Below are positions 2,583 through 62,329 of a stretch of DNA of 64,000 nt, piece by piece (the first letter of the stretch is position 1; every line of letters begins with the position of its first letter). The stretch is from Eledone cirrhosa (taxonomy: Eukaryota): NCBI GenBank assembly GCA_964016885.1, contig OZ024742.1, positions 45,260,001 to 45,324,000 of the forward strand. Reading direction: 5' to 3'. The notes beneath the pieces are model-generated. The model saw only the letters and a program-made list of their open reading frames with translations. It was not told the DNA's origin and made no database searches. Position numbers and translations under genes: made by a program.

Positions 2583-3477
2583 TCCAATAAAACAAAATAA
2601 TTGCTGAAAATAAGATTAAATCATTCTTTTAGTGTAAATTACTTCACTGTTCCTCGGAAGTGTTTAGAGTGTCACATACTTGAATAAAAGATCCATGTGT
2701 CTTGTGTTAGCTAAAGCTCGTTGCTATAAAGTAGTATTGCTCTGGTACCTGACAGAGTTAAATCTGCCCCAACTGGAGGAGGAATTCTTTAGCCTTGGTT
2801 GGTAACCATCTTAGAGATGGTCTCTCGATAAAAATATTGGTAGTCATATAGCCTTAAAACTACAACCCTCTGATAAGTAGAATGGCAAATAATAATTTAC
2901 TCCACAGCGGCGCGAATGATGCTGGAATCAATGGTGTCCCCTTGTACAGCAAGATGAACTCGGTCTTTACCTTATAAATGCTGGAAATGTTTAGACTATT
3001 TCACCTAAATTGAAAAGAGGAAAATTTGACGGATCCGAGCTCAATAGGACAGTTATGGAGGTACACATTCGAATCAAACTGAACACAATGCGGTCTATTG
3101 GCTCAAATTGGGTATATTTGATGTAAGAAAACAAATACTAAATAGCCAAGCTAGACAGATAAAAGCAAACGTGTGAATGACATAAGTGAATATCGAAGAG
3201 TTTATGAGAAGTGTTCAGAATTGAAGAAGGAAGTTATGATGGTGCATATGTCCTAGATTTTAGGACATCTGCACCATCTAGGACTTAGGTAATCAAGAGC
3301 ATGATGTTCTTGAGATAATACTAATACAGAACATAACTGAACCAAGAAATCTTATGTGAACTGACAAAACATGTAGAAGCTTATTTCATTGATTGGAAAT
3401 CTATTTTCTGTCTTCAGTGAATTGGTTCTCACGTGAAGAAGGTAAACAAAAAAACGACGCGTGTGTTTTATTAGATA

Positions 3478-4560: not shown

Positions 4561-5230
4561 TGCAAACGTATATGTTGAATGCTTGATTAATAATAATAAA
4601 TTAATAATATATAATTCATAGTAATTTCAGAGTGCGTGCAAAATGAGGGTGGGTGGCATCTTGCATGAATATGAGGCCATTGGTGTTGTCCCAAGTGGTC
4701 ACAGTAGGCTAAACATTATAACTAATTTACAATAGGCAGTTTCTTTCCACCCACCATGTATATGTTGAAATTTAGGTATTTTTCAATTCTATTGTTATAT
4801 TGTTCAAAGACTGAACAAAGACTGTGTTAATTTATCTTCACTGTACAGTATATATTTTAATATCTAAACACTAATTTTGTTGGAAGTACCAACAAATCTA
4901 CGTTTAATTTTATGTGGGTTCTGTAAATATCAAAAGAGGCCGATAATCTCATCGAGATTTGTGTCATGGCCTCTGTGCAGTATGTGCACATTACAAAAGT
5001 TATCACATTTTGATAACCACCCTAGTGAGGAATGACACAAGTTCTGGAGAAAGGTATATATTATATATATATATACACCTTATATACATATATATATATA
5101 TATACACATATATGTATGTGTTTGTGTGTGTGTGCGCGCATGTGCGTAAAAGGTAATCAGAAATAATAACACAATCGGTACAGTGTATGGAAGGAATATA
5201 TTAGTTTAACACTTGAAATAGCAGGAAGAA

Positions 5231-5270
5231 TATCTTAACGTTTCGGACGCTAGTCCTTCATCAGAAGAAA
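5231..5270 (-). ncRNA. Minimal type I hammerhead ribozyme in a PLE pLTR remnant
   Basis: Minus strand: tctt-CTGATGA-a-ggac(tagc)gtcc-GAAAC-GTT-aaga. The downstream flank 5153-5230 is homologous to 32370-32452 (+). Confidence 0.8.
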
Positions 5271-5400: not shown

Positions 5401-5595
5401 ATAGGAAAAAGTATGACCCCGACGGCAGAGCTCAAGCCGTTTCGACGGCTATTTCTGGACAGAAATAGCCGTCGAAACGGCTTGAGCTCTGCCGTCGGGG
5501 TCATACTTTTTCCTATTACCCATTCTACTACCCTAAGTATTGAGTACTCTGGTGCGTTATGGTCCATCTGGTTCCTTACCACAACTCCTTCGTTA
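5401..5595 (+). mobile_element. Mini PLE insertion (fold-back pLTR) in (TA)n
   Basis: Perfect inverted arms 5401-5457 and 5460-5516 plus a tail to about 5595. Same family and same termini as 27534-30454. Confidence 0.75.
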
Positions 5596-6086: not shown

Positions 6087-6251
6087 ATTTATTAAAATAA
6101 CAGATTAAAGTTAAGGGTGAAAGCAGCGATTCTTTGCTTAAACTTTAATCTGTTATTTTAATAAATATTTGCTCTACGGTTCTTATATATTTGATATATA
6201 TTTATCCTTATCGAGCCCTCTTTGGATTTTAGTCTTCAAATTTATTATTAT

Positions 6252-6576: not shown

Positions 6577-6853
6577 AATAAATCTTATTCGTCGCACCAC
6601 CGATTCTCCATTTCTTATGTGATATATATATGTGTGTGTGCATGTGTGTGTGTGTGTGTGTCTTTAATATGTTAAGGTATCTTTTCATATTAAATATATG
6701 ATCTTCATGCTTCTCAGGAAAAAAGCCCAATGAAAGAAGCATATATCGTTTGAGAAACACATAATATTTTGTACATATATATAGAGAGAGATGCATATAT
6801 ATAATCATATGCAGGAAAATATACATACTTTAAGATGGTAAAAAGTTATTTTT

Positions 6854-6929
6854 TTCCGTGCAGCGCTGTTTCATAGACAATCAATTATCGATCACCAACT
6901 ATCGAAAGTTGGCTCATTCATCAGTGGAA
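6854..6929 (-). ncRNA. Degenerate hammerhead ribozyme
   Basis: Minus strand: ttcca-CTGATGA-at...at-GAAA-cagcgctg-CA-cggaa. Position 16.1 and one stem I base appear mutated T>C. Confidence 0.5.
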
Positions 6930-7384
6930 GTGTCTTAATATATGCACCCCCCCCCCTCCCTATACGTATATTTTACTCCCCAAACTACTAAAACACACAT
7001 CCATTTGTATAGCGCTGCAATTTATGTACATGTTATGTTTATCACATATCGAAGTTTTTTTTTTATATCTTGGTTGATATTTGATAGTAAATTTGTTTAT
7101 CATGTCATAACTTTTTCCCCACATATCACTATTTGCCAATTACTAGATGTGTATTCAGAGACAGATTTCATAGGTCATTTTGCTATAATCACTTTATAAT
7201 TATTGAAAGATGTAAATGTAATATGACTTGCTTGGACTCTTATTATTATTATTTGATAATAACAGCTAAACTAATTGACAAAATTTGTCCCGCCCCAAAA
7301 AATTCAGAAATTGTTCCGCCGCCCCTCTCTATATATAACTTTGATAGCGGCAAGTGTTGGTCTAAACCATGTCTAACTTAATAG

Positions 7385-7742
7385 CACCACCAAGAGATGT
7401 CTTTCAAATCAGGATTTGGACACTCAAGTAGAGAGTTATTGTTTTCGGAGACATATCCGAGTGTAGTAGATTTATCTGGAATTTCTTGGAGGAATTAGTC
7501 CAAAGACTTCTTGAATTTTATGGGATATGTTTCTGTTTTAATGTGTTTTGGTTTAATGCTAAAGAGAGCAGCACCAGTTGAGGTGAAATAATTGTGCCGT
7601 AATGTTGTTATGAGATGCGAGTTTGATTTTTGATGTGGGCGGATAGCACGGGGCCCAAGCCTTAGGTGTACTTTAAAGGTGATGCCTACATCATTTGGGC
7701 AATGCTAATGCAGATAATGTAGCGCTCACGGCGGCGATGGGT
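7385..7742 (-). mobile_element. CR1-clade LINE 3' fragment
   Basis: Minus translation RRRERYII / PNDVGITFKVHLRLGPRAIRP...NYFTSTGAALFS...FKKSLD*FLQEIPD resembles CR1 ORF2 C-termini. Confidence 0.7.
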
Positions 7743-7930
7743 GATGTATACGTCCATGTTAACGTTTGTGCCTATCGGTGTTTACTGATTGAAACTAGTA
7801 AATGAATAAAAAATATATATGGGGGGATCTATACATACATATATATATACATGTAGCATTCTGTAGCTGGCAATTACAACCTATACGTCTTTCTTTACTC
7901 TCCTTTGAGATTTGATTGTATACTTCCACT

Positions 7931-7995
<65 letters not shown>

Positions 7996-8032
7996 AGATA
8001 GATAGATACATACATACATATACATACATATA

Positions 8033-8099
<67 letters not shown>

Positions 8100-8102
<3 letters not shown>

Positions 8103-8558
8103 GATATTAAATAAATGGAAACTATATTTATAAAACCATATTTATTTCATTATATATATTTCAGGGATATCATATTAACAATATGTTATGCCTTCTTCAG
8201 ACAAAATACAATATAGACAGTTTTATAGATAAATAGATTTGACATACCGTTCAACATCGACTTGTATTTGAAAAAGTTGATTTGACTGCCAAATCAACTT
8301 TTTCAAATACAAGTCGATGTTGAACGGTATGTCAAATCTATTTATCTATAAAACTGTCTATATTGTATTTTGTCTGAAGAAGGCATAACATATTGTTAAT
8401 ATGATATCCCTGAAATATATATAATGAAATAAATATGGTTTTATAAATATAGTTTCCATTTATTTAATATCGTAAATATACTCCAAATACTTGTTGAGTG
8501 CTTTTATATCAGTTATAAATATTTACTAGTTGTAACCCAACAATTTAAATATAACTTT

Positions 8559-8562
<4 letters not shown>
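8100..8562 (+). mobile_element. Fold-back PLE pLTR insertion (185-bp perfect arms) in (TA)n
   Basis: Arms 8100-8284 and 8290-8474 with a 5-nt loop and an unpaired tail to about 8562. Contains a hammerhead motif. Confidence 0.75.
8366..8431 (+). ncRNA. Type I hammerhead ribozyme (mirror copy at 8143-8208 on -)
   Basis: tattttgt-CTGAAGA-agg...cct-GAAA-tatata-TA-atgaaata. Stem I is 8 bp with two G-U pairs. Confidence 0.7.
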
Positions 8563-8604
<42 letters not shown>

Positions 8605-8606
<2 letters not shown>

Positions 8607-8666
8607 GGATTAACAAATAATAGTTAAATGCAGTCCAACTTAGGTGGATGTAAACCTTCTTTCCTG

Positions 8667-8671
<5 letters not shown>
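8605..8671. mobile_element. 67-bp mini-insertion of the PLE family at 34802-37532
   Basis: Left part matches 34802-34842 and right part matches 37509-37532. (TA)n on both sides. Confidence 0.75.
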
Positions 8672-8710
<39 letters not shown>

Positions 8711-8761
8711 TGTATATATATATATATATACATACATATACTGTATATATATATGTGTACG

Positions 8762-9042
<281 letters not shown>

Positions 9043-16407: not shown

Positions 16408-18460
16408 TGTAGCAGGAGTGGCCTCCCTTGTTGTGACACTCACATCCCCAATAGATTAACGCTCTCTAGACAGGAAGTAGAACCCTTTCTGTAACTTCCG
16501 GTCAGAACCCTATAAAACTAACAACTTTAAGTTCTCTCTCTCTCATTTGCCTTTTCGGCTCCTGGCCTTTGCCAGGCGTCTTCGCCCAGGCGCGTCTTTT
16601 GCCAGGCGCGTTCGCCTGGCAACCAAAACGGTAACTAATAACTTTGCTTCATTCTTTCATCTATTCATTGACATGTCAACCTTACTGTTCTATATATCCA
16701 CAAATTGTTAATTAAATATTATACACACAAATCACGTCTCATGTTATATTCATACACACCAGTATTTTGTTATAAGTGGTGACCCCGAAAAAAGAAAAAA
16801 ATAGCAGAATCTGGTGTGTGTGAGTAACATTACGAATACGCAGCAAAATTTTATTGACAAACTATGAAAATACGCAGTCAAAGACACGAACACACGTACA
16901 TGTGAAATTCTCATTCAGACAGACTCTTTTTCCTCACGCATCCACTAACTGTCGCAGTTCACTGTATATATATATATGTTTCTCATTTCTTACAACGAAC
17001 ACTTTAAAAACAAACAAAAAAAAATAGAAATTTGATTTTTTTTTTTTTTAAACATTTCAACAGGAACATTTATTTTCGATGAATCTCAACCATTACCTTT
17101 TTTTTCATCGTTTTCTTCATCGTTCAAGTTTTTTTCAAAGTTCACACCAAAAAAAAAAATTGAACTCGCCATATTTGTTATACTAAGTGAAGCCTTTCTT
17201 TCTTTTTCATCATTGTCACTTTCACACACACATTTTTTCAAAATGGCTGCCAACGACCTGTTGCACTATCATTTTCTCGCTCAATAGAAATATTTTTTTC
17301 TTTCAACTTAACCTTGTATTGGCACGTGTAGGCTGCACAATTCTCGATTCACTGAGATAGCCGGACGCCATGAGATAACGTTTCTCGCCAAGGATTCTCC
17401 AGCCTTAAGCTATATTCTCCTATTTGCCGGTTTAAAAATTTACCACGTAAATTTGCCGTTGAAAACTGCGCATTTATTCAGAATGCTTATTTCTTTGGTC
17501 GCTGGCCTCTTGACCCTTCCAGGTCAGCGCATTCTCAACATCGACCATCAACTTCGGCTGTTATTTCTAGCACTTTGCGCAACTCATTTTTTCTGAAAAA
17601 ATTATTTTACTGTGAATTTAAACATCGAGTACGCTCACTCCGCGAGACAACAACATCAACAGCAACACAGATTCATCAACAACCAAAACCAGCAGAACAA
17701 GCCAGAGAATTTATTTTTGCAGCACTCTTCCTGTGATAAAATCCATTCGGAGGTTGGAAATTTCACGTTACACCACCTGCATTCATTCTATGGAACACAC
17801 TTTCTTTCCTGCTGTCGTGTGATTGCACACCTGTGAACAATATTTTGAACATTTGAACTTTGAGCTCTTCTTTTACTTTATTACATTGTATCTTTTAGTG
17901 ATGGATAGATAGATGTCCAGTCGTTCTCTGGCCAAGAGCGGTTGACTACCTTGATATCTATCATTGATTTTTGCAAACATTATTATTTTTTTTTTTTTTT
18001 CGTAATTTTCATGCCTGTTACAACATTCTCGCCAACTTACTACATACATATTTCATTCGATTTTATATTTTAAAAATCTGGCGCGGGATAATGTAGCAGG
18101 AGTGGCCTCCCTTGTTGTGACACTCACATCCCCAATAGATTAACGCTCTCTAGACAGGAAGTAGAACCCTTTCTGTAACTTCCGGTCAGAACCCTATAAA
18201 ACTAACAACTTTAAGTTCTCTCTCTCTCATTTGCCTTTTCGGCTCCTGGCCTTTGCCAGGCGTCTTCGCCCAGGCGCGTCTTTTGCCAGGCGCGTTCGCC
18301 TGGCAACCAAAACGGTAACTAATAACTTTGCTTCATTCTTTCATCTATTCATTGACATGTCAACCTTACTGTTCTATATATCCACAAATTGTTAATTAAA
18401 TATTATACACACAAATCACGTCTCATGTTATATTCATACACATCAGTATTTTGTGAAATA
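16408..18460 (+). mobile_element. Non-autonomous LTR retrotransposon, copy 1 (tRNA-Trp PBS)
   Basis: Near-identical direct repeats 16408-16774 and 18092-~18458. PBS TGGTGACCCCGA at 16777-16788, purine tract before 18092, non-coding interior of about 1.3 kb. Confidence 0.9.
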
Positions 18461-19004: not shown

Positions 19005-21998
19005 TGTTTTTCTGGTTTTATAATTTCACAAATTTTTACCAATAGAGAGTCGGTTTCTAACATAGACACAAGACTCTCATTGGAATTTACACAACATCAA
19101 CTAGGTAGATATGTATGTATGCATGCATGTGTAGATATGGATGTTATTGTATGTGTGGATGTGTATGTTTTGAGTTGTATGTGTGCATGTGTATATGCTT
19201 TGTATCTGTACATGTGTATATGCAGTTATTAAAATTTTTGAATGTTTTACATATTTTTACTGTTCCATTAATGGATTGTACTTGTAATTTCCTAACTAGT
19301 TGTGTTCTTTCTGTTCCTGTGAAGCCTAGCTTCTCAAGATTTGTATTGAGGCAGTTACTAACATACCCCAGTGCCCCAATAATCACAGGCATAAATCTGA
19401 AGGTGTAATCAGGGTGGAGTATCTGCAGATTTCTCATCAGTTCTGCATAAATATTCTCCTTTTCTCTAATCTTTGATATTATATTGGCATCTGCTGGGCA
19501 GCTAATTTCCACTACTGTGCATGCTTTCTTCTACCTGTCCCATATCATAATATCTGGTCTGTTATGCCTGCATTTTATTGGGGTTTTTACTGGAACATTC
19601 CACCAGTACTCTTTCATATTAAGTACATGGATGTCTTCCACATTGCTGTAGCTTTTAATGTGTTTATTATCGGGGTTATCTTTTTTACGAACTGCATTGT
19701 ACAGTGTTTTGGCCACTACATCATGCCTCATAGGTAGATAGTACCTCGATGACATCTTTGGAAAGCTGCTGATGACATGGGTGATATCCTCGATGTTAGT
19801 TCTGCAGAGTCTGCACTTGTTATCACATCTAGGTGTTTTGCCTGCATCCCTATCTCTTTTGTGAATCAGGTATTTCGTGTTAATCTCCTGTTCTTGGGTT
19901 GCAAAAGTGTATCCTTCAAAGTGGGAGCCAATATAGCGGTTGTTAGTCCAAGATAGAATACTTTCCTTATCTATATTACTCTCACTCTGGAGCTTCCTGG
20001 CAACATATCCATGCATGATATTTTGCTGATAGGCATGCAGTTTTTCATCCATGGATTCACTGCGATACTGGTGAGCGACTTCCCTGGGTGTGAGTTTTTG
20101 ATTATCATACAGGGAATATCTCTCGAGGAGTTCCTTCCCAACTCTCATGATCTTATCTGTTTCATGCAGATAGACTTGCTCGAGAAGCGGGCTCCTACAC
20201 TTCGAGGTTCGTAGATGTTGTCGGAGAGATATGATGCGACATTCAAATGTTGTCTGGACTGATGTTTGGCCTCTGCCTCCCTGCTTACGTTTCAAGTAAA
20301 GGCGATCTATGTCACTGTTGATGTGGAAGTTTCCGGTGTTGTTCAGTATTTTACGAGTTCCAACATCAACTGCTCGGATTTCGTCTATCGTCCAATTGAG
20401 TATTCCAAACGTTGGTGTTAGGACAGGCACAGCAAACACATTGTGAGCCACTGTTTTGTTTTGCGCAGAGAATTCCGATGACCAGATCTTTCTTAATCGG
20501 GTGTAGTATTCCCTGGTTACGCGTTCTTTATTACAGATACCATTATAGTATATGTTCTCATCTATCCCCAGGTATCTGTAGCAGTCCTCATCAGATATCG
20601 GTGAACAGTTAGGCCATTGATGACAATGTTGCTAGATTGGGTTGTTGTTTTTCCCCGCTTTACAGTCATGTATGAGCATTTATCTTGGCCCAGCTCCATT
20701 CCTATATCCTCTGAGAACGTTGTAACCAAGTCAAGATTTTTCTTCATCCCATCCATGTTCTTGGCATAGAGTTTCAGAATGTCCACAAAGAAATTATGGG
20801 TTAGGTTCGTATTTCTGTCCTCCTGTGAGCCAATGATGTATCCCTCACATTTCTTTAGCAGAAAGAACAATGGTTTAATGACAAGATGAATAATATCACA
20901 GAGAGACTGTTCCCTCTGAAATATATCCCTGCAATATTTTATTTTATCAGTGAAAATAGAGTCCTCCCTCTCTGTCTTTAACCTGAGGATAGTAGCCCAA
21001 GAAGATGACAGCCTCTCTGTGGCTCTGACAATAATGTCTGGGACTTTAGCAAGTTGGAGGGCCTCTATCATCCAAGAGTGGGGAACAGAATCGAAAGCTT
21101 TCCTGTAGTCCAGCCAGACTATAGCCATATTCCTCCTAAGTTGTCGCACCTCCGACATCGCAGTTTTTTTTTATTAGGAGTTGTTCAGCACGTCCCCAAA
21201 CCCCTTTCTTTCCAGCTGCTTGTTCATCTGTGATGATGTTATTATTTTCCCAGTGATCTTGGAGGAATAGGTTCAGGCAGGCTGTATACATCTTATACAT
21301 CAGGTTCTGACATGCAATGGGTCGGTAGTTTTTTGCCAAGTGGGTGTCTTTGTTCTTGGGGACCAGTAATGTTTGTGCTAATGTCAACCATTCTGGTATA
21401 AGTGTATCTCCCTTAAGAACTTGTTGGTAGAGGTCAGTAAGACACCTCCGATAGAATATCAGTTTTTTGTACCAGTAGCCGACAATTATGTCTCTTCCTG
21501 GTGTTTTCTTATCTTGGAGTTTTCCTATCACAGTCTCAAGGGTACCCTCACTTATTTCGTATGTTTTTGTTGTAGTGTAGGAGCAATAGTTCTGTTGGAT
21601 TTCTTTTACCCACACTGCATCTTGGTTGAAATTCTTCTTTTCACCCCATATTTTGCTCCAAAAGGAATCTATGTCCTTCTGGGATGGGGCCTCAGTGACA
21701 CTTATTATTTTGTTCTTCATATCTCTATAGACTGATGTTTGATTTCGTCTGAATCTTTTATTAAGCACTTTTCTCTCATCTACCTTCTTCAGGTATCGGC
21801 GTTTTTCGCTAACAGCTCTCAATTCTTGTTTGAGGGTGATCAGATTATATTGAAGAGTTCTGGTTCTACTGTTACCAAACATCGTCTCTATTTTATTTTT
21901 CACTTTGTTGGTGAGGAGTGACGTTTTTTTGTGTTTGTTTGTATGTAAGGAGCATTGTCACATATCCTATGGTTTTTCGTAGGTCAGCAATCTGTTTT
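19005..21998 (-). mobile_element. R4/Dong-clade non-LTR retrotransposon (RT + CCHC + restriction-like endonuclease), frameshifted
   Basis: NYRPIAC, WLDYRKAFDSVPH, HNFFVD(I), CRLC...H...RHD, NRPDIMIWD..VEISCP...KENIY and PVIIGALG across four ORFs. Flanked by (TATG)n on both sides. Confidence 0.85.
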
Positions 21999-25757: not shown

Positions 25758-25809
<52 letters not shown>

Positions 25810-25949
25810 ATAATAAATTTGAAGACTAAAATCTAAAGAGGGCTCGATAAGGATAAATATATATCAAATATATAAGAACCGTAGAGCAAATATTTATTAA
25901 AATAACAGATTAAAGTTTAAGCAAAGAATTGCTGCTTTCACTCTTAACG

Positions 25950-26480
25950 GGATCTTCTGAAACTAACAAAGTCAATCTGTAAACGCAGAAGTGGATATTT
26001 CAAAGAACGTTGCAACCGCAGGAAGACAGGAAGACGATACTTTGTTTCGTGGAAACGTTCCCTGGCAAAGAACGGGAAAAAAACGAATATAATACGTCAT
26101 TAATAGGAGCGGTGAAAAGCAATTACACGCAAAGACAGAACCACGTTTATGGTATAAAAGAAGTCGTAGACTAATGTTCTTTTGGGTAGTTCATAGAAAC
26201 GTTCTCTGGCAATGAACGGAAAAAACGAAGATAATACGTCATATGTGGGGCGTGGAGAACAATTGCACGCAGACAAAACCACGTAAATGGTATAGCTGAA
26301 GTCGTAGACTAAAATTCTAACTAGGAAACCGAATGATTCTCCGCTTCAGAGTTAAGAATAAAGTAAATAAAATACAATACAGAGGTAATTGAAATTAAAT
26401 AAATACATACACGCATCCAAATACGTACATACACAAGCATACGCGAAAACACTCGCCATGGGTATACCACGCACATATAA
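25950..26480. repeat. Dispersed repeat homologous to the Helitron interior
   Basis: Inverse homology to about 30890-31350, with an internal tandem duplication of about 139 bp. Confidence 0.6.
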
Positions 26481-26906
26481 ATATGTGTGTGTGTGTGTGC
26501 GTGTATACAAATAAATAAGTAATTAAATAAACGTATATAAATAAATAAATACCTATATAACAAGCGCACACACATACCTACATGTAAATACACAAATGTT
26601 CGGAGACGTACGTCAACCAAAACATGAAGTACACGTATACACACACCCAACATATGTACGAACCCGCATACTCACACAGACGCAAAACTCCCGTATACAC
26701 ATAACCAAAAGCATATGTACCAGAATATATAAAAATATACGCCATAACATATAAAATCAAATATACGTACGAGAAAGTATACGTACCTTCACAAAACATA
26801 CAGGTAATATATACTTACCTATGCAAATAGGTAATGGTATAAACATAACATATACTTAGCTACCACATCAAGACGTAAAATATCCACGTATAGATCGTAC
26901 TATCCG

Positions 26907-27395
26907 TTAGGGTATAATGTGGGGCTGTAATACAGGAAAGTTTTGTGCAATTTGTTTACAAGCCGAAATTGCCTCAGATTTTTTGTTTAAGATGTGGTCT
27001 GTGGCGTAGAGTATTTCCAGGGCCTCAGCGGCGCAGAGGTCACATGGTCTTTTATTTCCGTTATATAATCTAGCCCTAGCTAGGATCTCCCAGTGTAACT
27101 TATATTGGGTGTGGTTGTCTTTTAGACTCCAGATATAAGCTGAAAGTGACGTCATATTCCTTCTTAGAGGGTAACGAAAAGAATGGGTATGCAGGTAAAG
27201 ACGCTGCTTGAATCTATTGGCGGTTAACCCTATGTAGGCCCTACGGGACGTGGGTGTTTCAACCTTACATTTGTAGACAATGTTACTAGAGAGGCATTTC
27301 CCGGATAGGGGGCAATCAACCCTATTCCTACAATTACAGTTAGTACTAACTACAGGGTTGCACGCTCTATATATACACTCTGCAAACTACAGCCG
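26907..27395 (-). mobile_element. Neptune-type PLE GIY-YIG endonuclease fragment
   Basis: CNCRNRVDCPLSGKCLSSNIVYKCKV...AYIGLTANRFKQR...H.HSFR...TSLSAYIWSLKD...CDLCAAE...LNKKSEAISACK. Confidence 0.9.
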
Positions 27396-27497
27396 CCTTA
27401 AACCTGGAACATAACCCAATGAGTGACAAACCCTGTAACAGCATCAAGTGCTTTGACCAACATCGCCACTAGTAACCACAAGTTATTTACATAATAA

Positions 27498-27536
<39 letters not shown>

Positions 27537-28185
27537 CAAAGGAATTGTGATAAGGAACCAGATCGACCATAACGCACGACAGTACTCAATACTTAGGGTA
27601 GTAGAGTGGGAAATAGGAAAAAGTATGACCCCGACGGCAGAGCTCAAGCCGTTTTGACGGCTATTTCTGGACTAAATTAGAATGTTTAGCCTGGTGAATA
27701 AATAGCCGAACTTTGGTAACCGCATGCAAACACAGATTGCGTAGGACTTACCTCGCCCTCAAACCCCATAACGACCGGGTGGGTAGACAATGGCTGATAA
27801 CCCCCCCCCCCCCTACACACACACACTTGCCGAATAAGTTAGGAGATACCCCAGCTTACATAGGTAGATGTATCTCTTTTATTTTCCTCTATGCCTTCAT
27901 CTTCCCCCTGTCTCATCCTATCACTTCCTCGTCTGCTTTTCCCCTTTCGCCTACCCCGATGCAGCCCATCGGGCCTTTGTAGCATCAGTTCCCCCACCCC
28001 TGTAATTTTAAGATAGAATTGGCCGAATACGTTTTACTAACTACTTATAGCAGATGTGTTAGACCCCTTTAATTTTGTTTCAGTTTTATTACTACTCCAT
28101 TTCTACAATTTTTTTCTATTCTCAACTTATTAACCTGTAATAGTAAGATAGCATGTGTTGTATCAGATGAAAGAATGGTATTTAA

Positions 28186-30022
28186 CTAATGTATTGGTAC
28201 GCGATGGGGCCCACCAACAGCCCCGGCGGACAGAATGGAGAAGGCGTTTCCCCGGAGGACGGCAAGGTAGACGCGCTGGAAAAGCCACTCCAACTCGTGG
28301 GGTTCACACCTGAGGCTGACCAGCTCAGCGCCTATAGTGGTGAGTAAAGAGGTAGCCCTGGGGCCGAGGACACCAGAAGTCTCCACTGCCAGGGGAACGA
28401 CCGCAATTTAAGGAGTTTGGCCCCCTCAGCCTTACGTGCAGCAGAACCTGGGTCAGTCGCAGACTGCACCAGGTTGCGGCTGCAGAAAGTGTCGGTGCAA
28501 GTGACATCCCAGACGAGGGCTTTGCCACCGCGGAACGGGAAGATGTTCATGCCATCTGGCCTTTTGCCGCCCCCTCGATCCAGCCCCACCGGCTCGAGCT
28601 GGGAAGGGAAGCCTGCAGCGTCCAAGCCATGCTTAATGACCTCGTTGAGGGCAGCATGGCGTGGAATGCGGCCTGCACTGTGGCGACAGGAAAGTGGGTG
28701 GAGGCCGAAAGCGTCCACGGTGGAACCGCAGCGACATTGGTGTGGCTGGCAGATCCGGAGGCCGAGCCTCAGGGAAACGCCGATTCGCAGGCTATGGTTG
28801 TCTAGCTGCGTGCCAGTGGGTAAGGAGGGCAGGGCATGGAGCCAGGTACCACTGTGGGGTTTGGAGACCGCACGAAAACAAGCAAGGCGGTGCTGGTCGA
28901 GCTAGCGCGTGAGCCTGTCTGAGGCCAGGCTGCACTGGATGGCATCCCAAGTGCGTTGGGGGGACTTGACGTCAACAAGGGGAGAAGGAGGAGGGACGTC
29001 TACTGGGCTAAGTCCCAGCCGGTCCCACGTCTCACAGGCGGCCTCGCGTTCTCTGAACACAGAGGGTTCTGTTGTGTTTTGAAGAACCCTGCTGACGAGG
29101 ACGTGGCATGATATTACCGACGAAAGATACGCCGGCAAAGCTAGTGAGATCGGGGACCGGAGGCCAAGGCCGACATACCTGACCGGTAAAGTGGCCTGTT
29201 GCCACCCTATGTCGTCAAACTTGACGTTGCATATCCCCTCGGCTGCTGCTCGGATACAAGTATCGAGGTCAGCGAGGAGAGATATCTGGCTGTAGCATGG
29301 AGCGCTGTGGAGTGTATAGAGGAGCTTTGGCATGGCGAAGCAGTTCCTCAGCAGAAAGAGAGCAGGGTGGCCGTCAATCAAGCCCAGTCGGCTCGTGAGA
29401 GTCTGGAGCTGTTGAAGCCTGGACCTGATGGTGGAGCGGATAGCCGGCGGGTGGATCGGTGACCCGATGATGAGGACATCCTCTTTGGGGGTCACCTGAA
29501 CCTGGCGGAGAATGGACTGCACGTCCAAGACGGAGGCTGCAAAGCTCGCAGCATCGAGGCTGACGTTCACCACCTCCGACTTGGCCGAGTTGACCTGGAG
29601 GCCGATTGCCGCCAGGGCAGGAATCACCGATTGAATGTCTTGGCAGACCGTCCGTACGGGCCCGCCCAACGTAGCATCATCCAGATACCAAACGTTGAGA
29701 GGGGCCGTGATACTCCGGGCGATGTGGTCAATACCAAGGGCGAACAGGAGAGGTCCCAACGGGTCGCCCTGTTGGACCCCAGTAGCCGAGGGTATGACCG
29801 TATCAGCAGCTAGGAGCATGCTCGGGGCTCCATATGACAGGTAGGCCAGCGGGTAGGCAGAGGGGGTTCGGCTGAGGCAGGCCTCGAGCAGATCATCCCC
29901 GGCATAAAGAGTTAAAGGCATTCCTCATGTCAAGCTTGACAATGAAGTGCCTGGAGTCTCTGGATGCCGGTACCAATGGGCAGCTGCTGAAGAACTGCCT
30001 GATTGCATGAGCGGCTCCTTCA
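28186..30022 (-). mobile_element. CRE-clade non-LTR retrotransposon (RT + CCHC + restriction-like endonuclease), 5' truncated
   Basis: KLDMRNAFN, GVQQGDPLGPLLF, WYLDD, GLGL, CRCG...H.LSC...RH, KRPDG...WDVTC and QR...RGNA. GC-rich, with frameshifts and stops. Confidence 0.85.
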
Positions 30023-30340
30023 TGTGATTTTTTTTATTCATTTCTCACTATCTAATTTTATATATATTTTTTTTAATTTCTATTATCTTTTATTGTCTCC
30101 TACTCTCATTCGAATTACCTATTCTATAACCTCCCTCCTCCTTTTCATACACTATCCTTAGAATCTGCTGTATACATATCACTTTCAACGCTTGACCGAC
30201 CGGCTCCACTCACTCCACTATTATTCTACAGGCAAGTTCAGCCACCCCTACCTCCCACCAAATGCCATGATAGACTTATTTGTGTTTACAACAAATTTTA
30301 ACCAATCCTCTTGACAACTACAATCTTCATATATAAGGAA

Positions 30341-30444
30341 GTACCCCATTGACAAGTTCGGCTATTTATTCACCAGGCTAAAAATTCTAATTTAGTCCAG
30401 AAATAGCCGTCGAAACGGCTTGAGCTCTGCCGTCGGGGTCATAC
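30341..30444 (+). ncRNA. Hammerhead ribozyme variant (U3-A8 core, long stem II, 5-bp stem III)
   Basis: gtacccca-TTGACAA-g..cggctattt...aaatagccg.c-GAAAC-ggc(ttgagctct)gcc-GTC-ggggt. Confidence 0.65.
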
Positions 30445-30449
30445 TTTTT

Positions 30450-30487
<38 letters not shown>

Positions 30488-31795: not shown

Positions 31796-32454
31796 GTGCG
31801 TCATGGTGTATCTAACCATTTTTTTTTAGGTCTTACTGCGGCTGATTTCTTCCAGAGAGAAAGAAAGAGATGGAAAAATGCAGAGAAGATTCATCCCCGG
31901 AGGAATAATAAAAAATGTTTACACTGCACATTTCATTTTTTCAACGCTAAAGCTACCGATCCAAAATCAGTAATTCAAATCCCTGAAAACTTTCAAATAT
32001 ATGCTGTTCTACATTACAGTTGATATTTTTTTTATTAAAGCGTTTTCATATTATATATATATATACATATATATATATATAGTGACGAAACATAAGTCAA
32101 TTGCATGAACTCATAATCCTTTATTTACTACTTTATTTGTATGAAATTGTAAATAAGACAAAAGTATTAGAACAGGGGGAAATAACTCACCGAACGCGAT
32201 AGTTTTGAGGCCCCAGGGACCAGATTTGAAACCTCGTCTATTTGCTTCCTTAGCACTTTTTACATAGGTGTGTAAATTTTCATATCAGTCCGACCACGTC
32301 TACTACCATTTAACCGTGCACATCTGAATTTCAACCACCACACATTTCACAAATATATATTAGATTAGATATATCTTCCTGCTATATCAAGCGCTAACCT
32401 AATATATCCCTTCCATATACTGTACCGATTGTGTTGTTATTTCTGTTTACCTAT

Positions 32455-32486
<32 letters not shown>

Positions 32487-34803: not shown

Positions 34804-35032
34804 GGATTAACAAATAATAGTTAAATGCAGTCCACTTAGGTGAAGTCCAGTTATGGTATTCCAGGTAGTGGATGATATTAACGCTTGGCTTGGTTTGACT
34901 CAACAAGGCGTTTTCATAGTGATGCTGCGGGTATGCTGTAATTCCTATGTTGTAAACACTTGGAGTAATATTAAATCAGGAAAGAAGGTTTACATGGTTT
35001 GCTATACAAAAAAGTTTTTAATCACATAGCTT

Positions 35033-36614
35033 CTAATCTTACCCATGATGAAATTGAAATAATAATAGCGGCTAGAAGGACTATCGTAAAATTTGAAAAT
35101 AACTACTGGGTAAGAAAGGATAGAATAAATAGCTTCGATATTACAATGGGATCAAATGATTCTGCGCAAATTACAGATATCGTGGGGCTATTCATAGCAC
35201 ACAACCTACATAAGGAATTCAGTAACCTCCAAGGAGGAATTTATAGGGACGACACGTTACTTATAGCTAGGAACCTAAACAACCAGAGCATGGAAAGACT
35301 AAGGAAAAATATTAGAATATTCTTCAAAAAACTAGGCCTAAGTATTACCTACGAACTAAACCATAAGAAGGTAAATTTCCTAGATGTAACTCTAAATCTA
35401 AATACTGGATTAATAGAACCTTTCCACAAAAATAATGAAAATCTTGCCTACATTAGTTACAACTCAAATCACCCCAAATCCATAATTAAATCCATAGCAC
35501 GTAGTATATCCCTCCGAATATCCCGCCTATCCTCAAACCTAGAAATCTTTAACGAGCATGCTGACTATTATAATGCAGCATTAAGTAGGGCCGGTCATAA
35601 AGATAAACTACAGTATATAGTGAATAAGGACAACATAAACAATCCTAGTAATTTCTACTCCAACCGCTCACATAATAATAGGAATAGCTTGACTAGACAT
35701 AGGGTTAGACATGTAACACCTAGAGTAAACGGCCAAAACACTAATAACGTAAACCCTAGAAACAATAGAAGAAACAGACAAAGAAAATACCTATGGTTCA
35801 ACCCAATATTCAACTCCTCTATAAAAACTAGACTGCCCTCTACATTCTTTAAACTAATAGATAAACACTTCCCTATCTCGCATAGATATCACAAAATACT
35901 CAATAGATCTACTATAAAACTCTCTTTCTCAACAGCAGCTAACATAGAATCACACATACGCAAGATCAACCACAGAAATATCTCAAGTAAATCAATTGCA
36001 CCTATACATAAGCACAAACTCATCACAACATCACAACCACAAGCGCATACAAACGCGCAGCAGCAAAACCCCATGGGGCATATATCACAACCCACTTATA
36101 ACAGGGTACTAAATAGGAATGTAAAAGCTGCACAAAATAGCGCCTCAAACTGCAACAGTCAGCTACCAGATAGGTGCCCATTGGCGAACAGATGTCTCGA
36201 TTCGAGCCTGGTGTACATGTGCACTGTCATCACGGGTAAACATAGGATTTATCGTGGGGCTATTCATAGCACACAACCTACATAAGGAATTCCATAGGAT
36301 CCACCGCGGGTTCTTTTAAGAAAAGATGGTATGTGCACAGGCACTCAATGAAAAATCGAGCACTTATGGGTTCCACCACCCTCGCCAGAAAAATATGGGA
36401 ATTGAAGGACAGCAACGCTAGCTACACTATCAACTGGTCGAAGTTGTCGGCTGCTAAAACCTATAGTACAGGGATGTCCTATTGCGGGCTGTGTGACCTT
36501 GAGCTATTGTATATCCTTAGAAATGTTAAAAGGCTACTTAATAATAAGTTAGAAAGATCTATCTTCTGCAGACATAGAATAGCCACTAAATTCATAAGAT
36601 TCAAACCTCCGTGA
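35033..36614 (+). pseudogene. PLE reverse transcriptase / GIY-YIG endonuclease (disrupted)
   Basis: ORFs 34999-36285 and 36333-36614. The first 11 codons of the called ORF come from the inverted pLTR, and an insertion breaks the YIG motif. Confidence 0.85.
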
Positions 36615-40011: not shown

Positions 40012-42023
40012 TATAGCGAAGATACTGGGTTGTATGAATGTAACAAGGAGACATGGTTTGTGTGTATAATATTTAATCAACAATTCAACAGTATAGTTGA
40101 CATGTCAAAGAAATAGATGAAAGAATGAAGCAAAGTTAGTAGTTACTGTTTTGATTGCCAGGCAAACGCGGCTGGCAGAAATCGCCTGGCGAAGGCCAGG
40201 CGCCGGTAGGGCTAATGAGAGGGTGAGAACTTAAAGTTATTAGTTTTATAGGGTTCTGACCGGAAGTTACAGAAAGGGTTCTACTTCCCGTCTAGATGTT
40301 GTTAATCTATTGGGGTTGTGAGTCACAACAAGGGGGGCTACTGCTACATAACCTCCCGCCAGAATTTTAGAATATAAAAATCGAATGAAATATGTAGCAA
40401 GTTGGCGAGAATGTTGTAACAGGCCTGAAAATTACGACAAAAGAATGTTTGCAAAAATCAATGATAGATATCAAGGTAGCCAACCGCTCTTGGCCAGAGA
40501 ACGACTGGACATCTATCTATCCATCACCCAAAGATACAATGTAATAAGGTAAGAGAAGAGCTCAAAGTTCAAATGTACAAAATATAGTTCACAGGTGTGC
40601 AATCACATGACAGCAGGAAAGAAAGTGTGTTCCAGAGAATGAATGCAGGTGGTTTCTGTTCTGTGGTATATCGTGAAATTTCCAACCTCCGAATGGATTT
40701 TCTCACAGGAAGAGAGCTGCAAAAATAAATTCTCTGGCTTGTTCTGCTGGTTTTGGTTGTTGATGAAGCTGTGTTGCTGTTGCTGTTGTTGTTGTCTCGC
40801 TGAGTGAGCGTATTCGGTGTTTAAATTCACAGTAAAAAAAAAGATTTTTCGGAAAAAAATGAGTTGCGCAAAGTGCTAGAAATAACAGCCGAAGTTGATG
40901 GTCGATGTTGAGAATGCGTTGACCTGGAAGGGTCAAGAGGCCAGCGACCAAAGAAATAAGCATTCTGAATAAATGCGCAGTTTTCAACGGCAAATTTACG
41001 TGGTAAATTTTTAAACCGGCAAATAGGAGAATATAGCTTAAGGCTGAAGAATCCTTGGCGAGAAACGTTATCTCTGGCGTGCGGCTATCTCTGTGAGTCG
41101 AGATATCTCTGTGAGTCGAGAATTTGAGCTGCCTACACGTGCCAATACAAGGTTAAGTTAGGTTAAAAAAAAATATATTTCTAACGCGCGAGAAAATGAT
41201 AGTGCAAGTGTGAAAGTGACAATGATGAAAAAGAAAGGCTTCACTTAGCATAATTATTGGTGTGAACTTTTGGGGAAAAAAAAAAAATAACTTGAACGAT
41301 GAAGAAAACGATGAAAAAAAAATAAACAATGGTTCTTCGAAAATAAATGTTCTTGTTGAAATGTTTTTAAAAAAATATCAAATTTCTTTTTTTGTTGTTA
41401 TTTTGGAAGTGTTCGTTGTAAGAAACGAGAAACATATATATATATATATCGTGAAATGCGACAGTTAGTTGATGCGTGAGAGAAAAAGTCTGTCTGAACG
41501 CGAATTTCACATGTGCGTGGTGTGTTCGTTTCTTTGACTGAGTATTTTCATAGTTTGTCAATAAATTTGTTGTGTATTCATAATGTTACTCACACAACAC
41601 CAGATTCTGCTATTTTTTATTTTTTCGGGGTGACCACTTATAGCGATGAACGGCTGCGTGTTCGTATCACGTCAGGGTTACCAATATAGCGGAGTACTCG
41701 TGCAATGTATGAATGTAACAAGGAGACATGGTTTGTGTGTATAATATTTAATCAACAATTTAACAGTATAGTTGACATGTCAAAGAAATAGATGAAAGAA
41801 TGAAGCAAAGTTAGTAGTTACCGTTTTGATTGCCAGGCAAACGCGGCTGGCAGAAGACGCCTGGCGAAGGCCAGGCGCCGGTAGGGCTAATGAGGGGGTG
41901 AGAACTTAAAGTTATTAGTTTTATAGGGTTCTGACCGGAAGTTACAGAAAGGGTTCTACTTCCCGTCTAGATGTTGTTAATCTATTGGGGTTGTGAGTCA
42001 CAACAAGGGAGGCTACTGCTACA
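40012..42023 (-). mobile_element. Non-autonomous LTR retrotransposon, copy 2
   Basis: LTRs 40012-40348 and ~41685-42023, TSD ACAC (40008-40011 and 42024-42027), PPT ggcgggagg, PBS at 41625-41636. Interior homologous to copy 1. Confidence 0.9.
41652..41683 (+). other. Copy of tRNA-Trp 3' end including CCA (extended PBS)
   Basis: ggctgcgtgttcgtatcacgtcagggttacca versus recalled metazoan tRNA-Trp end GGCTGCGTGTTCGAATCACGTCGGGGTCACCA (3 differences). Confidence 0.8.
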
Positions 42024-42182
42024 ACACTATCTGCTGTATGTGTAGTCTTATACACCTACAGCAGATAGTCTTATATAGTCTTATATTCCCGTGTCACATA
42101 TCTTTATCACTGTCAGCTGTATGTGTAAAGCATTGCAGTCCCTGTTGTATATCTTATTCTACAGTCAAGCTTCAACAACAGG

Positions 42183-42873
42183 TTTCTTTATGGTGAAAAA
42201 GATATCAATTTCTCCCTCATGTGGTTCTGCCTTTCTTTATGGTGAAGAAGATATCACTTTCTCCCTCATGTGGTTCTGCCTTTCTTTATGGTGAAGAAGA
42301 TATCACTTTCTCCCTCATGTGGTTCTGCCTTTCTTTATGGTGAAGAAGATATCACTTTCTCACTCATGTGGTTCTGCCTTTCTTTATGGTGAAGAAGATA
42401 TCACTTTCTCCCACATGTGGTTCTGCCTTTCTTTATGGTGAAGAAGATATCACTTTCTCCCTCATGTGGTTCTGCCTTTCTTTATGGTGAAGAAGATATC
42501 ACTTTCTCCCTCATGTGGTTCTGCCTTTCTTTATGGTGAAGAAGATATCACTTTCTCACTCATGTGGTTCTGCCTTTCTTTATGGTGAAGAAGATATCAC
42601 TTTCTCCCTCATGTGGTTCTGCCTTTCTTTATGGTGAAGAAGATATCACTTTCTCCCTCATGTGGTTCTGCCTTTCTTTATGGTGAAGAAGATATCACTT
42701 TCTCCCACATGTGGTTCTGCCTTTCTTTATGGTGAAGAAGATATCACTTTCTCCCACATGTGGTTCTGCCTTTCTTTATGGTGAAGAAGATATCACTTTC
42801 TCACTCATGTGGTTCTGCCTTTCTTTATGGTGAAGAAGATATCACTTTCTCCCTCATGTGGTTCTGCCTTTCT
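42183..42873. repeat. 49-bp minisatellite
   Basis: Unit tttctttatggtgaagaagatatcactttctccctcatgtggttctgcc, about 14 copies. Confidence 0.97.
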
Positions 42874-42947
42874 TCCCACAGTTCAAATCTTCATATGTGT
42901 TACCTTATATCTGTTATAAGTATCACACCCCAGTTTCCTTTGTATTC

Positions 42948-45880
42948 CATGGTTATATCACACATCTCATGGTTCACTACACTGTCATCTCACACATCTC
43001 ATGGTTCACTCCACTGTCATCTCACACATCTCATGGTTCACTCCACTGTCATCTCACACATCCCATGGTTCACTACACTCTCATCTCACACATCTCATGG
43101 TTCACTACACTGTCATCTCACACATCTCATGGTTCACTCCACTGTCATCTCACACATCTCATGGTTCACTCCACTGTCATATCACACATCTCATGGTTCA
43201 CTCCACTGTCATCTCACACATCTCATGGTTCACTCCACTGTCATCTCACACATCTCATGGTTCACTACACTGTCATCTCACACATCTCATGGTTCACTCC
43301 ACTGTCATCTCATACATCTCATGGTTCACTCCACTGTCATCTCACACATCCCATGGTTCACTACACTCTCATCTCACACATCTCATGGTTCACTCCACTG
43401 TCATCTCACACATCCCATGGTTCACTACACTGTCATCTCACACATCTCATGGTTCACTACACTGTCATCTCACACATCTCATGGTTCACTACACTCTCAT
43501 CTCACACATCCCATGGTTCACTACACTATCATCTCACACATCTCATGGTTCACTACACTGTCATCTCACACATCTCATGGTTCACTACACTATCATCTCA
43601 CACATCTCATGGTTCACTACACTGTCATCTCACACATCTCATGGTTCACTCCACTGTCATCTCACACATCCCATGGTTCACTACACTCTCATCTCACACA
43701 TCTCATGGTTCACTACACTCTCATCTCACACATCTCATGGTTCACTACACTCTCATCTCACACATCTCATGGTTCACTCCACTGTCATCTCACACATCCC
43801 ATGGTTCACTACACTGTCATCTCACACATCTCATGGTTCACTACACTGTCATCTCACACATCTCATGGTTCACTACACTGTCATCTCACACATCTCATGG
43901 TTCACTAGACTGTCATTTCACACATCCCATGGTTCACTACACTGTCATCTCACACATCTCATGGTTCACTAGACTGTCATCTCACACATCTCATGGTTCA
44001 CTACACTGTCATCTCGCACATCTCATGGTTCACTCCACTGTCATCTCACACATCTCATGGTTCACTCCACTGTCATCTCACACATCCCATGGTTCACTCC
44101 ACTGTCATCTCACACATCCCATGGTTCACTCCACTGTCATCTCACACATCCCATGGTTCACTACACTGTCATCTCACACATCTCATGGTTCACTACACTG
44201 TCATCTCACACATCTCATGGTTCACTACACTGTCATCTCACACATCTCATGGTTCACTACACTGTCATCTCACACATCTCATGGTTCACTAGACTGTCAT
44301 TTCACACATCCCATGGTTCACTCCACTGTCATCTCACACATCTCATGGTTCACTCCACTGTAATCTCACACATATCATGGTTCACTCCACTGTCATCTCA
44401 CACATCCCATGGTTCACTCCACTGTCATCTCACACATCTCATGGTTCACTACACTGTCATCTCACACATCTCATGGTTCACTACACTGTCATCTCACACA
44501 TCTCATGGTTCACTACACTGTCATCTCACACATCCCATGGTTCACTACACTGTCATCTCACACATCCCATGGTTCACTACACTGTCATTTCACACATCCC
44601 ATGGTTCACTACTCTGTCATCTCACACATCTCATGGTTCACTACACTGTCATCTCACACATCCCATGGTTCACTACACTGTCATCTCACACATCTCATGG
44701 TTCACTACACTGTCATCTCACACATCTCATGGTTCACTACACTGTCATTTCACACATCCCATGGTTCACTACACTGTCATCTCACACATCTCATGGTTCA
44801 CTACACTGTCATCTCACACATCTCATGGTTCACTACACTGTCATCTCGCACATCTCATGGTTCACTCCACTGTCATCTCACACATCTCATGGTTCACTAC
44901 ACTGTCATCTCACACATCTCATGGTTCACTACACTGTCATCTCACACATCCCATGGTTCACTACACTGTCATCTCACACATCTCATGGTTCACTCCACTG
45001 TCATCTCACACATCTCATGGTTCACTCCACTGTCATCTCACACATCTCATGGTTCACTACACTGTCATCTCACACATCCCATGGTTCACTACACTGTCAT
45101 CTCACACATCTCATGGTTCACTCCACTGTCATCTCACACATCTCATGGTTCACTCCACTGTCATCTCACACATCTCATGGTTCACTACACTGTCATCTCA
45201 CACATCCCATGGTTCACTACACTGTCATCTCGCACATCTCATGGTTCACTACACTGTCATCTCACACATTTCATGGTTCACTCCACTGTCATTTCACACA
45301 TCTCATGGTTCACTACACTGTCATCTCACACATCTCATGGTTCACTCCACTGTCATCTCGCACATCTCATGGTTCACTACACTGTCATCTCGCACATCTC
45401 ATGGTTCACTCCACTGTCATCTCACACATCTCATGGTTCACTACACTGTCATCTCACACATCCCATGGTTCACTCCACTGTCATCTCACACATCTCATGG
45501 TTCACTACACTCTCATCTCACACATCTCATGGTTCACTCCACTGTCATCTCACACATCTCATGGTTCACTACACTGTCATCTCACACATCTCATGGTTCA
45601 CTACACTCTCATCTCACACATCTCATGGTTCACTACACTGTCATCTCACACATCTCATGGTTCACTCCACTGTCATCTCACACATCCCATGGTTCACTCC
45701 ACTGTCATCTCACACATCCCATGGTTCACTCCACTGTCATCTCACACATCCCATGGTTCACTACACTGTCATCTCACACATCCCATGGTTCACTCCACTG
45801 TCATCTCACACATCTCATGGTTCACTCCACTGTCATCTCACACATCTCATGGTTCACTACACTGTTATTTCATGGTTAAC
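42948..45880. repeat. 32-bp minisatellite
   Basis: Unit catggttcact(a/c)cactgtcatctcacacatc(t/c), about 90 copies. Confidence 0.98.
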
Positions 45881-49358: not shown

Positions 49359-50394
49359 ATACTGAAATATGCCAACATTACTATAAATTTAGAGGCCCAC
49401 TGATGAGTTTGGATAGGGCCCACATGTAAGTAAATCCCACCCTGCCAGTAAAAAACTTTAATTCTCTTTCTCCCGTCCACTGAGCTGGAAAAAATGAGTT
49501 GTTTCTGTAATTCAAAAGACCAGCCTGTTACATACTATGTCATGCTGAATCTCCCTGACAATTATGTTAAATGTATACATGTCTGTGGAGTACTTAGTCA
49601 CTTATGTGCTAATTTCACAAACAAATAAAACTCATCATCACTAACAAAAATCCAGCACACACCATATAAATTGACATTGTGCCAACCACTTTTATGTATT
49701 GTTTTTCATTTTCCTGGCTGTATATAGTCTAAATATATTCTGTTTGCAATCTTTAAATGAATGCAAGTGGCTTGAGTAAAGTCGTTGTAGTCCAATCCAC
49801 AGTTATATAAGCTGACTGCAAAGGACGTTGTACATTAATATCAGCTTTGTTCCATGTCCAATTAATACTGTTTATTTAAGAATTAAATAATAAAAAAGAA
49901 ACAATTTAGAGAATAAGCAGTTTAACTAATTAAGTGCAATCATATAATACGAAAACAATTGCAGACGTTATACACTAGGTAATAAAGTATAAATTCTATT
50001 GAAAAGGGAAAGAACTCATGATTACAGTTTGTCTTACTATGATAGAAAATGAATTGGGGTTTTTTTTTTTTTTTTTTTTTTTTTTCTGTATCAAATCATT
50101 GTATTTTCAAACTGAAAAAGTCTTCCTTGCAGAATTTTCCCTATGTAGATATATATTATCCTTGGCTATTTCAGTTAAGTAAATTTAAATTTTGTTTAAG
50201 TGAAATGTACTCATTTTGAAATTTCTATTCTCACTTAGAATTACAAATTTCTTTTACCTTCATGTTTCAAACTTAGAACAGAATTAATAAGTATTATTCT
50301 TTTTCCTGCTATGTCAGTGTTAGTCTTCTAAATCATTCTATTACCATCTTGCCTGAGACTGCATATATTGAAGGTCCTTATCATCATCATCGTT

Positions 50395-62300: not shown

Positions 62301-62329
62301 AGTCTTGTCTGGTGATTCTGTGAGTACAC
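50395..62329. repeat. 44-bp palindromic satellite array (about 270 units) with higher-order repeats
   Basis: Unit tgtct(g/a)(g/t)tgattctgtgagtacaccacaatc(a/g)ccagacaagtct. A 43-nt variant recurs. Confidence 0.98.

Follow-up and report, generated by a model that had tools for sequence, protein, structure and literature searches.

Paired fixed 3' ends and a common 5' stop in short head-to-head insertions of a Penelope-like retrotransposon

How does a retrotransposon come to leave a 195-bp fold-back with two arms that copy the same sequence and end at two different but fixed places? Such a fold-back lies at positions 5401-5595 of the window, the 64,000-nucleotide stretch of Eledone cirrhosa DNA analysed here, and is one of thousands of tiny head-to-head insertions of a Penelope-like retrotransposon. 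Its palindromic part (5401-5516) is 98.3% self-complementary, and (TA)n adjoins the fold-back at both ends. Penelope-like elements (PLEs) are the sister group of telomerase. For their tails, inverted ends and pseudo-LTRs the portions of the literature available here propose self-priming, endonuclease resolution, circular templates and tandem insertion. Thousands of abortive intermediates able to discriminate between such models are held in this genome; they contradict self-priming as a general route, with each target strand seen to use one start site, and indicate both an exact RNA 5' end and a jump. Fold-backs of this kind would be easily misannotated as MITEs or SINEs.

Element coordinates are given relative to the short end S (position 0, ...CCTAT), from which the long end L (...GTTA) lies at +79. 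Family 1, to which the fold-back belongs, was sampled with a 34-mer spanning -55 to -22 that has 10,153 exact matches in the genome, and the arm statistics come from the first 100 of these, all on contig C1. The 100 matches represent 96 insertions, both arms being matched in four. Anchored arms reach -55 by design of the 34-mer, a constraint from which their partner arms are free. The first 30 loci of a separate query were left out of the family-1 statistics because that query contained the junction. A TSD is not readable within the (TA)n target. Features of the window are collected in Table 1.

Table 1. Positions of the PLE-derived features and of the nested element within the window.
Feature	Position	Strand	Basis or remark
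S arm, family 1, 0 to -59	5401..5460	-	3' end points left into (TA)n
L arm, family 1, -56 to +79	5460..5595	+	last 79 nt (5517-5595) are the tail
Head-to-head junction, 1-nt overlap	5455..5466	.	exact-match counts genome-wide
Family-2 fold-back, S2 + L2, tail about 86 nt	6087..6250	.	used as independent replicate
Family-2 body	~25806-27400	-	
Inverted L arm, +79 to -101, second family-1 insertion	27534..27714	-	sequence comparison
5'-truncated S arm, part one (GIY-YIG ORF end + 3' UTR)	27704..28157	+	
Nested unrelated 5'-truncated non-LTR retroelement, 1.86 kb	28158..30020	-	
S arm, part two, ends at S	30021..30454	+	
Type I hammerhead-like motif (predicted)	30335..30454	+	fold; conservation in 57 copies
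Candidate core promoter inside ribozyme: TATTTAT + TTA(+1)GTC, A at -60 (30394)	30363..30399	+	

Judged from its translations, family 1 is an EN+ Penelope-like element with a reverse transcriptase (RT) followed at the C-terminus by a GIY-YIG domain. Natural copies encode the RT motifs FDIESYY and YRDDG followed by VIYQC...AYIG with downstream H/C residues, and a single ORF with a PLE-type RT followed by GIY-YIG with CCHH is found in the family, broken in every copy seen. Among the Atlas look-alikes of this ORF (0.91-0.94), part of the members have HTH_animal, GIY-YIG and RVT_1; Pfam gave no match on pieces of the family-1 PLE ORF. By its motifs, the family would belong to Nematis and not to Neptune. 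RT and EN are separated by a linker that is Cys-rich (CNC-x5-C-x5-C), a feature described for the Neptune/Nematis clades in the available text of PMC8557442. The pLTRs of family 1 include direct repeats about 3.1 kb apart as well as inverted copies and copies with the tail, and natural full-length copies show this same period (3118 in L229); one of them (L230) extends from -56 across the ORF as far as S. In full-length copies the tail is part of a 5' UTR that continues beyond it, and the ATG lies about 90 nt beyond L; the pair of termini represents the PLE tail already known, in a long form. Two loci considered as full-length candidates (L170 and L171) were rejected, as they are near-duplicates of each other and end soon after the ATG.

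The last 120 nt before S are predicted to fold as a hammerhead-like motif with a long stem II and a stem I that closes at S. Its core is the non-canonical U3-A8 variant UUGANAA together with GAAA; cores of the U3-A8 type can be active. The three stems and the core are conserved in 57 copies, in which subfamily markers upstream and downstream of -60 to -20 also remain linked (a pattern as compatible with a jump as with none), and the predicted cut falls between -20 and -19 (30434/30435). An Rfam search of the window and of the isolated motifs gave no match to a hammerhead family. A minimal hammerhead motif (CTGATGA...GAAAC) is present at 5220-5270 on the minus strand, in a sequence similar to 32367-32463 that is probably the pLTR of a third PLE family.

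The window also holds a 436-aa frame (34975-36285) of another PLE of the same broad clade as family 1, with an RT, a WFNP motif and a Cys linker. Two copies of a non-coding LTR-type element (16408-18454 and 40019-42031) have direct repeats of 363 bp and 318 bp that are 99.7% and 98.1% identical; the element at 16408-18454, considered as a possible relative of the fold-back family, is unrelated to it. On the minus strand, 19531-21957 is a broken non-LTR element with an RT and a C-terminal CCHC/endonuclease region, presumably R4/Dong-like by its motifs. Long minisatellite arrays with 98-bp, 32/64-bp and 88-bp periods occupy 42183-45872 and 50393-62329. Among the sampled loci, L193 carries at 372-2702 an open PLE frame of 777 aa, whose CX4CxxC linker is Neptune-type, and at 6646-9000 an open APE-RT LINE frame of 785 aa.

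An earlier note on this DNA had claimed that 5401-5595 shares both termini with the span 27534-30454, and this was borne out: the span has L at 27534 and S at 30454, in flanks that are unique and unrelated to those of the fold-back, not the shared unique flanks of a segmental duplication. The same note had taken the span for one 2.9-kb element that differs from the fold-back in nothing but the internal junction. A comparison with 30 further copies contradicts this, as the span is an inverted L arm plus a truncated S arm of about 0.9 kb with a nested insert, and 1.86 kb of it belongs to an unrelated retroelement. This insert is bounded by a 6-bp direct repeat (CATGTG) and carries an RT ORF (28902-29924) and a C-terminal ORF (28332-28901); the RT matches Pfam RVT_1 (E=4.7e-7), its Atlas look-alikes also have RVT_1, and by its motifs we presume it to be CRE-like. 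Related pieces are present in L120, L098 and L025. Nor does the junction vary freely between copies, since its position is itself strongly clustered in the first 100 matches.

Across those matches the two fixed ends abutting (TA)n recur, and they dominate where scattered termini might have been met. Fifty of the 100 family-1 arms are S-class (39 ending exactly at 0), 49 are L-class (40 ending exactly at +79) and one is of another kind, and (TA)n adjoins the 3' end in 88/100. The triplet UAU occurs at +15 and +24 too, yet neither is used as an end, and therefore microhomology alone does not select S and L. An adjacent inverted terminal arm is present in 75 of the 96 insertions; these comprise 72 S+L, one L+L, no S+S and two unclassified pairs, which puts S+L at 72 of the 73 classifiable inverted insertions. 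The remaining 21 arms are joined directly to (TA)n or to other DNA, or are complex, and four of these 21 without an adjacent partner have a more distant one, S+L each time.

The overlap between partners is informative as to how they were made. Nine of the 45 partner L arms begin at +17 to +57, wholly in the tail, and their S partners reach -55 or beyond. These nine share nothing with the S partner, so neither arm was copied from the other, and fold-back self-priming is therefore not the general route. Among the 56 insertions whose arms overlap, minor variants are common to both arms of an insertion 26 times, compared with 4.5 +/- 2.1 in 2000 shuffles (0/2000), which indicates that the two arms usually derive from a single RNA or a single source. 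Bursts of subfamilies or conversion at a later time could also contribute to this concordance. Several insertions have discordant arms, including the only L+L insertion (L118), whose arms belong to different subfamilies, suggesting the use of two RNAs. It is very probable that the inverted insertions are made by two priming events, and the proposal of two reverse-transcription events from two defined RNA positions is upheld by the pairing and by the non-overlapping L arms. The proposal that this is a form of twin priming holds as far as two primings go; it is not of the L1 type, because both arms copy the same RNA segment (-60 to 0).

The junction of the 195-bp fold-back has 351 exact matches genome-wide and is found in several subfamilies. 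It occurs in both polarities: read by eye in the first 100 of 208, its -56 side belongs to the S arm in 35, to the L arm in 64 and is unclear in one. The 75 inverted insertions have 66 distinct junction types, and fold-back lengths cluster near 195 bp. Given both polarities and this diversity of junctions, the fold-back must arise repeatedly and is not one amplified unit.

At the opposite end, both arms have a fixed 5' stop. Eighty-two of the 100 anchored arms stop at -63 to -55, 41 of them at -60/-59, and 13 go seamlessly past the stop (beyond -70). The unconstrained partner arms end at -63 to -50 in 24/33 S and 25/45 L. Position -60 is the A of TTAGTC, which matches five of six positions of the Drosophila initiator consensus TCA(+1)KTY, as given in the available text of PMC4752495, and a TATTTAT lies at -91 to -85, 31-25 nt upstream of the stop. 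In addition, a G stands 5' of the stop in 15/29 arm ends at -60 versus 3/31 at -59 (Fisher p=0.0006), an excess to be expected of a copied cap. As a sign of a cap it is modest, since C is nearly as frequent 5' of the -60 stop (13/29; G versus C only, p=0.03) and G precedes the stop in 7/15 informative cases of arms joined directly to (TA)n (by eye).

Some copies leave the stop and continue elsewhere. In six of 30 ORF-start copies an S or L arm halts at -60 to -58 and resumes inside the ORF at +349 to +529, and G adjoins the stop in five of these six. Of the 30, eight have a 5' end of their own at -72 to -46, and about half pass -60 seamlessly, a pattern equally compatible with a jump and with a template that is circular or multimeric. 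Two junctions (L129 and L094) have a poly(T) tract immediately 5' of the -60 stop, which suggests that A was added without a template or that the cDNA end slipped, and a 21-nt poly(A) at the jump site of L204 (~2980-3003) suggests a jump onto prematurely polyadenylated RNA. A second, minor stop was met among 69 very short fold-backs, in the first 50 of which the farther arm ends at -19/-20 in 21 cases (by eye), where about three of 50 would be expected from geometry; CpG decay blurs the distinction between -19 and -20. In L211 both arms halt at -19 and the jump departs from -19 to -21, as would be expected had its RNA been cut by the ribozyme. From these sequence patterns, the fixed stop of both arms quite probably marks the RNA 5' end.

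Family 2 has the same S+L architecture, with two ends 86 nt apart, and is represented by at least 25,076 arms (25,076 exact matches of a 30-mer genome-wide), of which 64 were parsed from 30 given loci and 40 stretches. These gave 21 S+L rows (two insertions counted twice), no S+S and no L+L; one S+S pair was met incidentally at L212, outside that count. Of the 5' ends, 18/64 fall at -73 to -66 and one at -76, while the stretch from -77 to -98 is empty; the A of TTAGTT lies at -73. Families 1 and 2 thereby stop at the A of the same initiator-like TTAGTY motif. No TATA-like word was found at -31 of family 2, and about 70% of its arms read through the stop.

Fixed ends, S+L pairing, some non-overlapping arms, the -60 stop, the jumps and the minor -19/-20 stop form the observed core of a model for these insertions. 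From the sequences we infer the rest, namely an RNA start, strand-wise priming at S and L, run-off, and a join or jump. The element RNA would begin with the A of TTAGTC, which lies within the 5' pLTR's ribozyme, so that S and L would exist only near the RNA 5' end. The (TA)n target would be nicked on both strands, one strand priming at S and the other at L, each through 3-4 nt of UAU pairing with the (TA)n primer and usually both on the same RNA or on RNA of the same source. The cDNAs would run off the RNA 5' end as strong-stop products of 60 nt and 139 nt, to be joined in most cases through microhomology of zero to a few nucleotides, or through filler, into a fold-back of about 200 bp. Less often a cDNA would jump to the RNA 3' end and give seamless pLTRs and long copies. 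A 3' ribozyme cut at -20 would leave RNA ends that share -60 to -20, and an internal site could serve as an alternative target. On balance we favour this model as a whole, that is, twin priming near the RNA 5' end, strong-stop run-off, and a join or jump. The pairing, the non-overlap and the anchored stop make it directly testable.

An unlikely but serious alternative accepts the twin priming at S and L and treats the stop as a structural or protein block within a longer multimeric or circular RNA, which processive enzymes simply pass through. Both families do stop in predicted hairpins, that at -60 lying 2-3 nt inside the 3' strand of the predicted loop-II hairpin, and the read-through arms described above (most of them in family 2) would be such passages; circular templates have also been proposed for PLEs in the available text of PMC4209133. 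However, there is no pile-up at the stronger stems (III and II) that the enzyme has already passed, a block would have to coincide with the A of TTAGTY in both families, and run-off agrees with the G excess, with the jumps that leave from the stop and with the further stop where the ribozyme is predicted to cut. Considerably less probable is a single priming, in which the cDNA primes itself by folding back and endonuclease resolution strips the tail from one end, as put forward in the available parts of PMC3846280 and PMC8557442. The near-identity of most arms and the tiny loop between them are what this would give, and the TA-rich S could be the cut site, but single priming is at odds with the L arms that do not overlap their S partner, with one junction in both polarities, and with the longer 5' arm often being S, which has no tail to copy. 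Self-priming is contradicted for the non-overlapping class; some symmetric copies could still arise in this way.

The remaining explanations are both highly improbable. A non-autonomous, MITE- or SINE-like unit amplified from one or a few masters would account for the 351 exact junction matches and for lengths near 195 bp, but a single master is largely refuted by the diversity of junctions, and the junction of the 195-bp fold-back occurs in both polarities and several subfamilies. Segmental duplication with deletion, or deletions that hairpins induced in long inverted copies once these had inserted, could appeal to the instability of long inverted repeats, yet the flanks are unrelated and such deletions would not halt both arms at one base, add filler or yield jumps from -60 into the ORF.

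Returning to twin priming near the RNA 5' end with strong-stop run-off, parts of this model have precedents. In L1 twin priming, two 3' ends of the target serve as primers on the RNA, which results in an inversion with a microhomology join. The second priming site of L1 varies, and its inverted segment is no duplicate of the 3' end, whereas here both sites are fixed and both arms copy the same segment.

Among PLEs, the available text of PMC8557442 describes EN+ elements with inverted copies, (TA)n targets, a start site inside the pLTR and a 30-40 bp tail, usually on one end, that is attributed to endonuclease resolution; that of PMC3846280 puts forward self-priming and mentions a pLTR with TATA and Inr motifs. 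With these published elements family 1 shares the GIY-YIG after the RT, a pLTR with a ribozyme motif (predicted in family 1), an inverted 5'-truncated copy, a tail on one end and (TA)n. It differs from what is described there in the longer tail (79 nt, and 86 nt in family 2, versus 30-40 nt), in near-strict S+L pairing and in consisting mostly of fold-backs of about 200 bp with a fixed 5' stop, and its non-overlapping arms contradict the self-priming reading of those papers. For Poseidon PAc of Anolis, the available portion of PMC11167929 reports that both target strands are nicked and extended in vitro and that reverse transcription starts internally at two fixed sites, near the pLTR-ORF junction, which match genomic tail ends. 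As far as these portions go, PMC8557442 and PMC11167929 already put in print an optional tail, an inverted copy and a pair of internal sites where RT starts on both nicked strands, so the two-site priming is not new. In PAc, as reported in that portion, the sites lie in the ORF, with no strand difference in start site and no target homology, unlike the sites here, which lie in the 5' UTR, one per end, with 3-4 nt of UAU microhomology; among the PAc results given there, a 5' strong stop, a jump or the joining of two cDNAs is not described.

Other sources, again in their available portions, touch on single steps. PMC2377424 maps the Penelope start to the upstream repeat and argues that pseudo-LTRs are not products of reverse transcription, and PMC13282606 gives PLE family counts only. 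Non-LTR retrozymes are derived from PLE pLTRs in 10.64898/2026.07.22.740005. Like the fold-backs, they are short non-coding pLTR derivatives in many copies, but retrozymes as described there are head-to-tail with whole ribozymes, whereas the fold-backs are joined head-to-head, contain half a ribozyme and seem not to be units of propagation. Our literature search found no application of strong-stop, strand transfer or twin priming to PLEs, although older reviews and a 2004 enzyme paper may hold a similar idea; strict pairing, non-overlapping arms and an initiator-anchored stop with jumps were not found in print either.

The steps beyond priming resemble those of retroviruses and LTR elements, in which strong-stop synthesis is primed near the RNA 5' end, runs off, jumps by way of terminal redundancy and regenerates terminal repeats. 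If the stop is indeed the RNA 5' end, PLEs would copy themselves by a retrovirus-like strong stop and template jump. In contrast to retroviruses, the PLE model has a nicked target and not a tRNA as primer, no integrase, a redundancy set by the ribozyme, and a transfer that mostly fails. The likeness is a working analogy and not a matter of membership. An LTR retrotransposon was considered and rejected, as the copies encode RT and GIY-YIG only and end in (TA)n, with no integrase, tRNA primer site or TG...CA repeats. At a little short of an even chance, PLE replication at large is such a hybrid, with programmed dual priming by both nicked target strands just downstream of the transcription start, strong-stop cDNAs and their transfer to a ribozyme-cut 3' end, which would build pLTRs and full-length copies. 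If true, this route would account at once for tails, for 5' copies that are inverted, for pLTRs in tandem and for what the hammerhead does, and failed transfer would be what leaves tens of thousands of 200-bp fold-backs.
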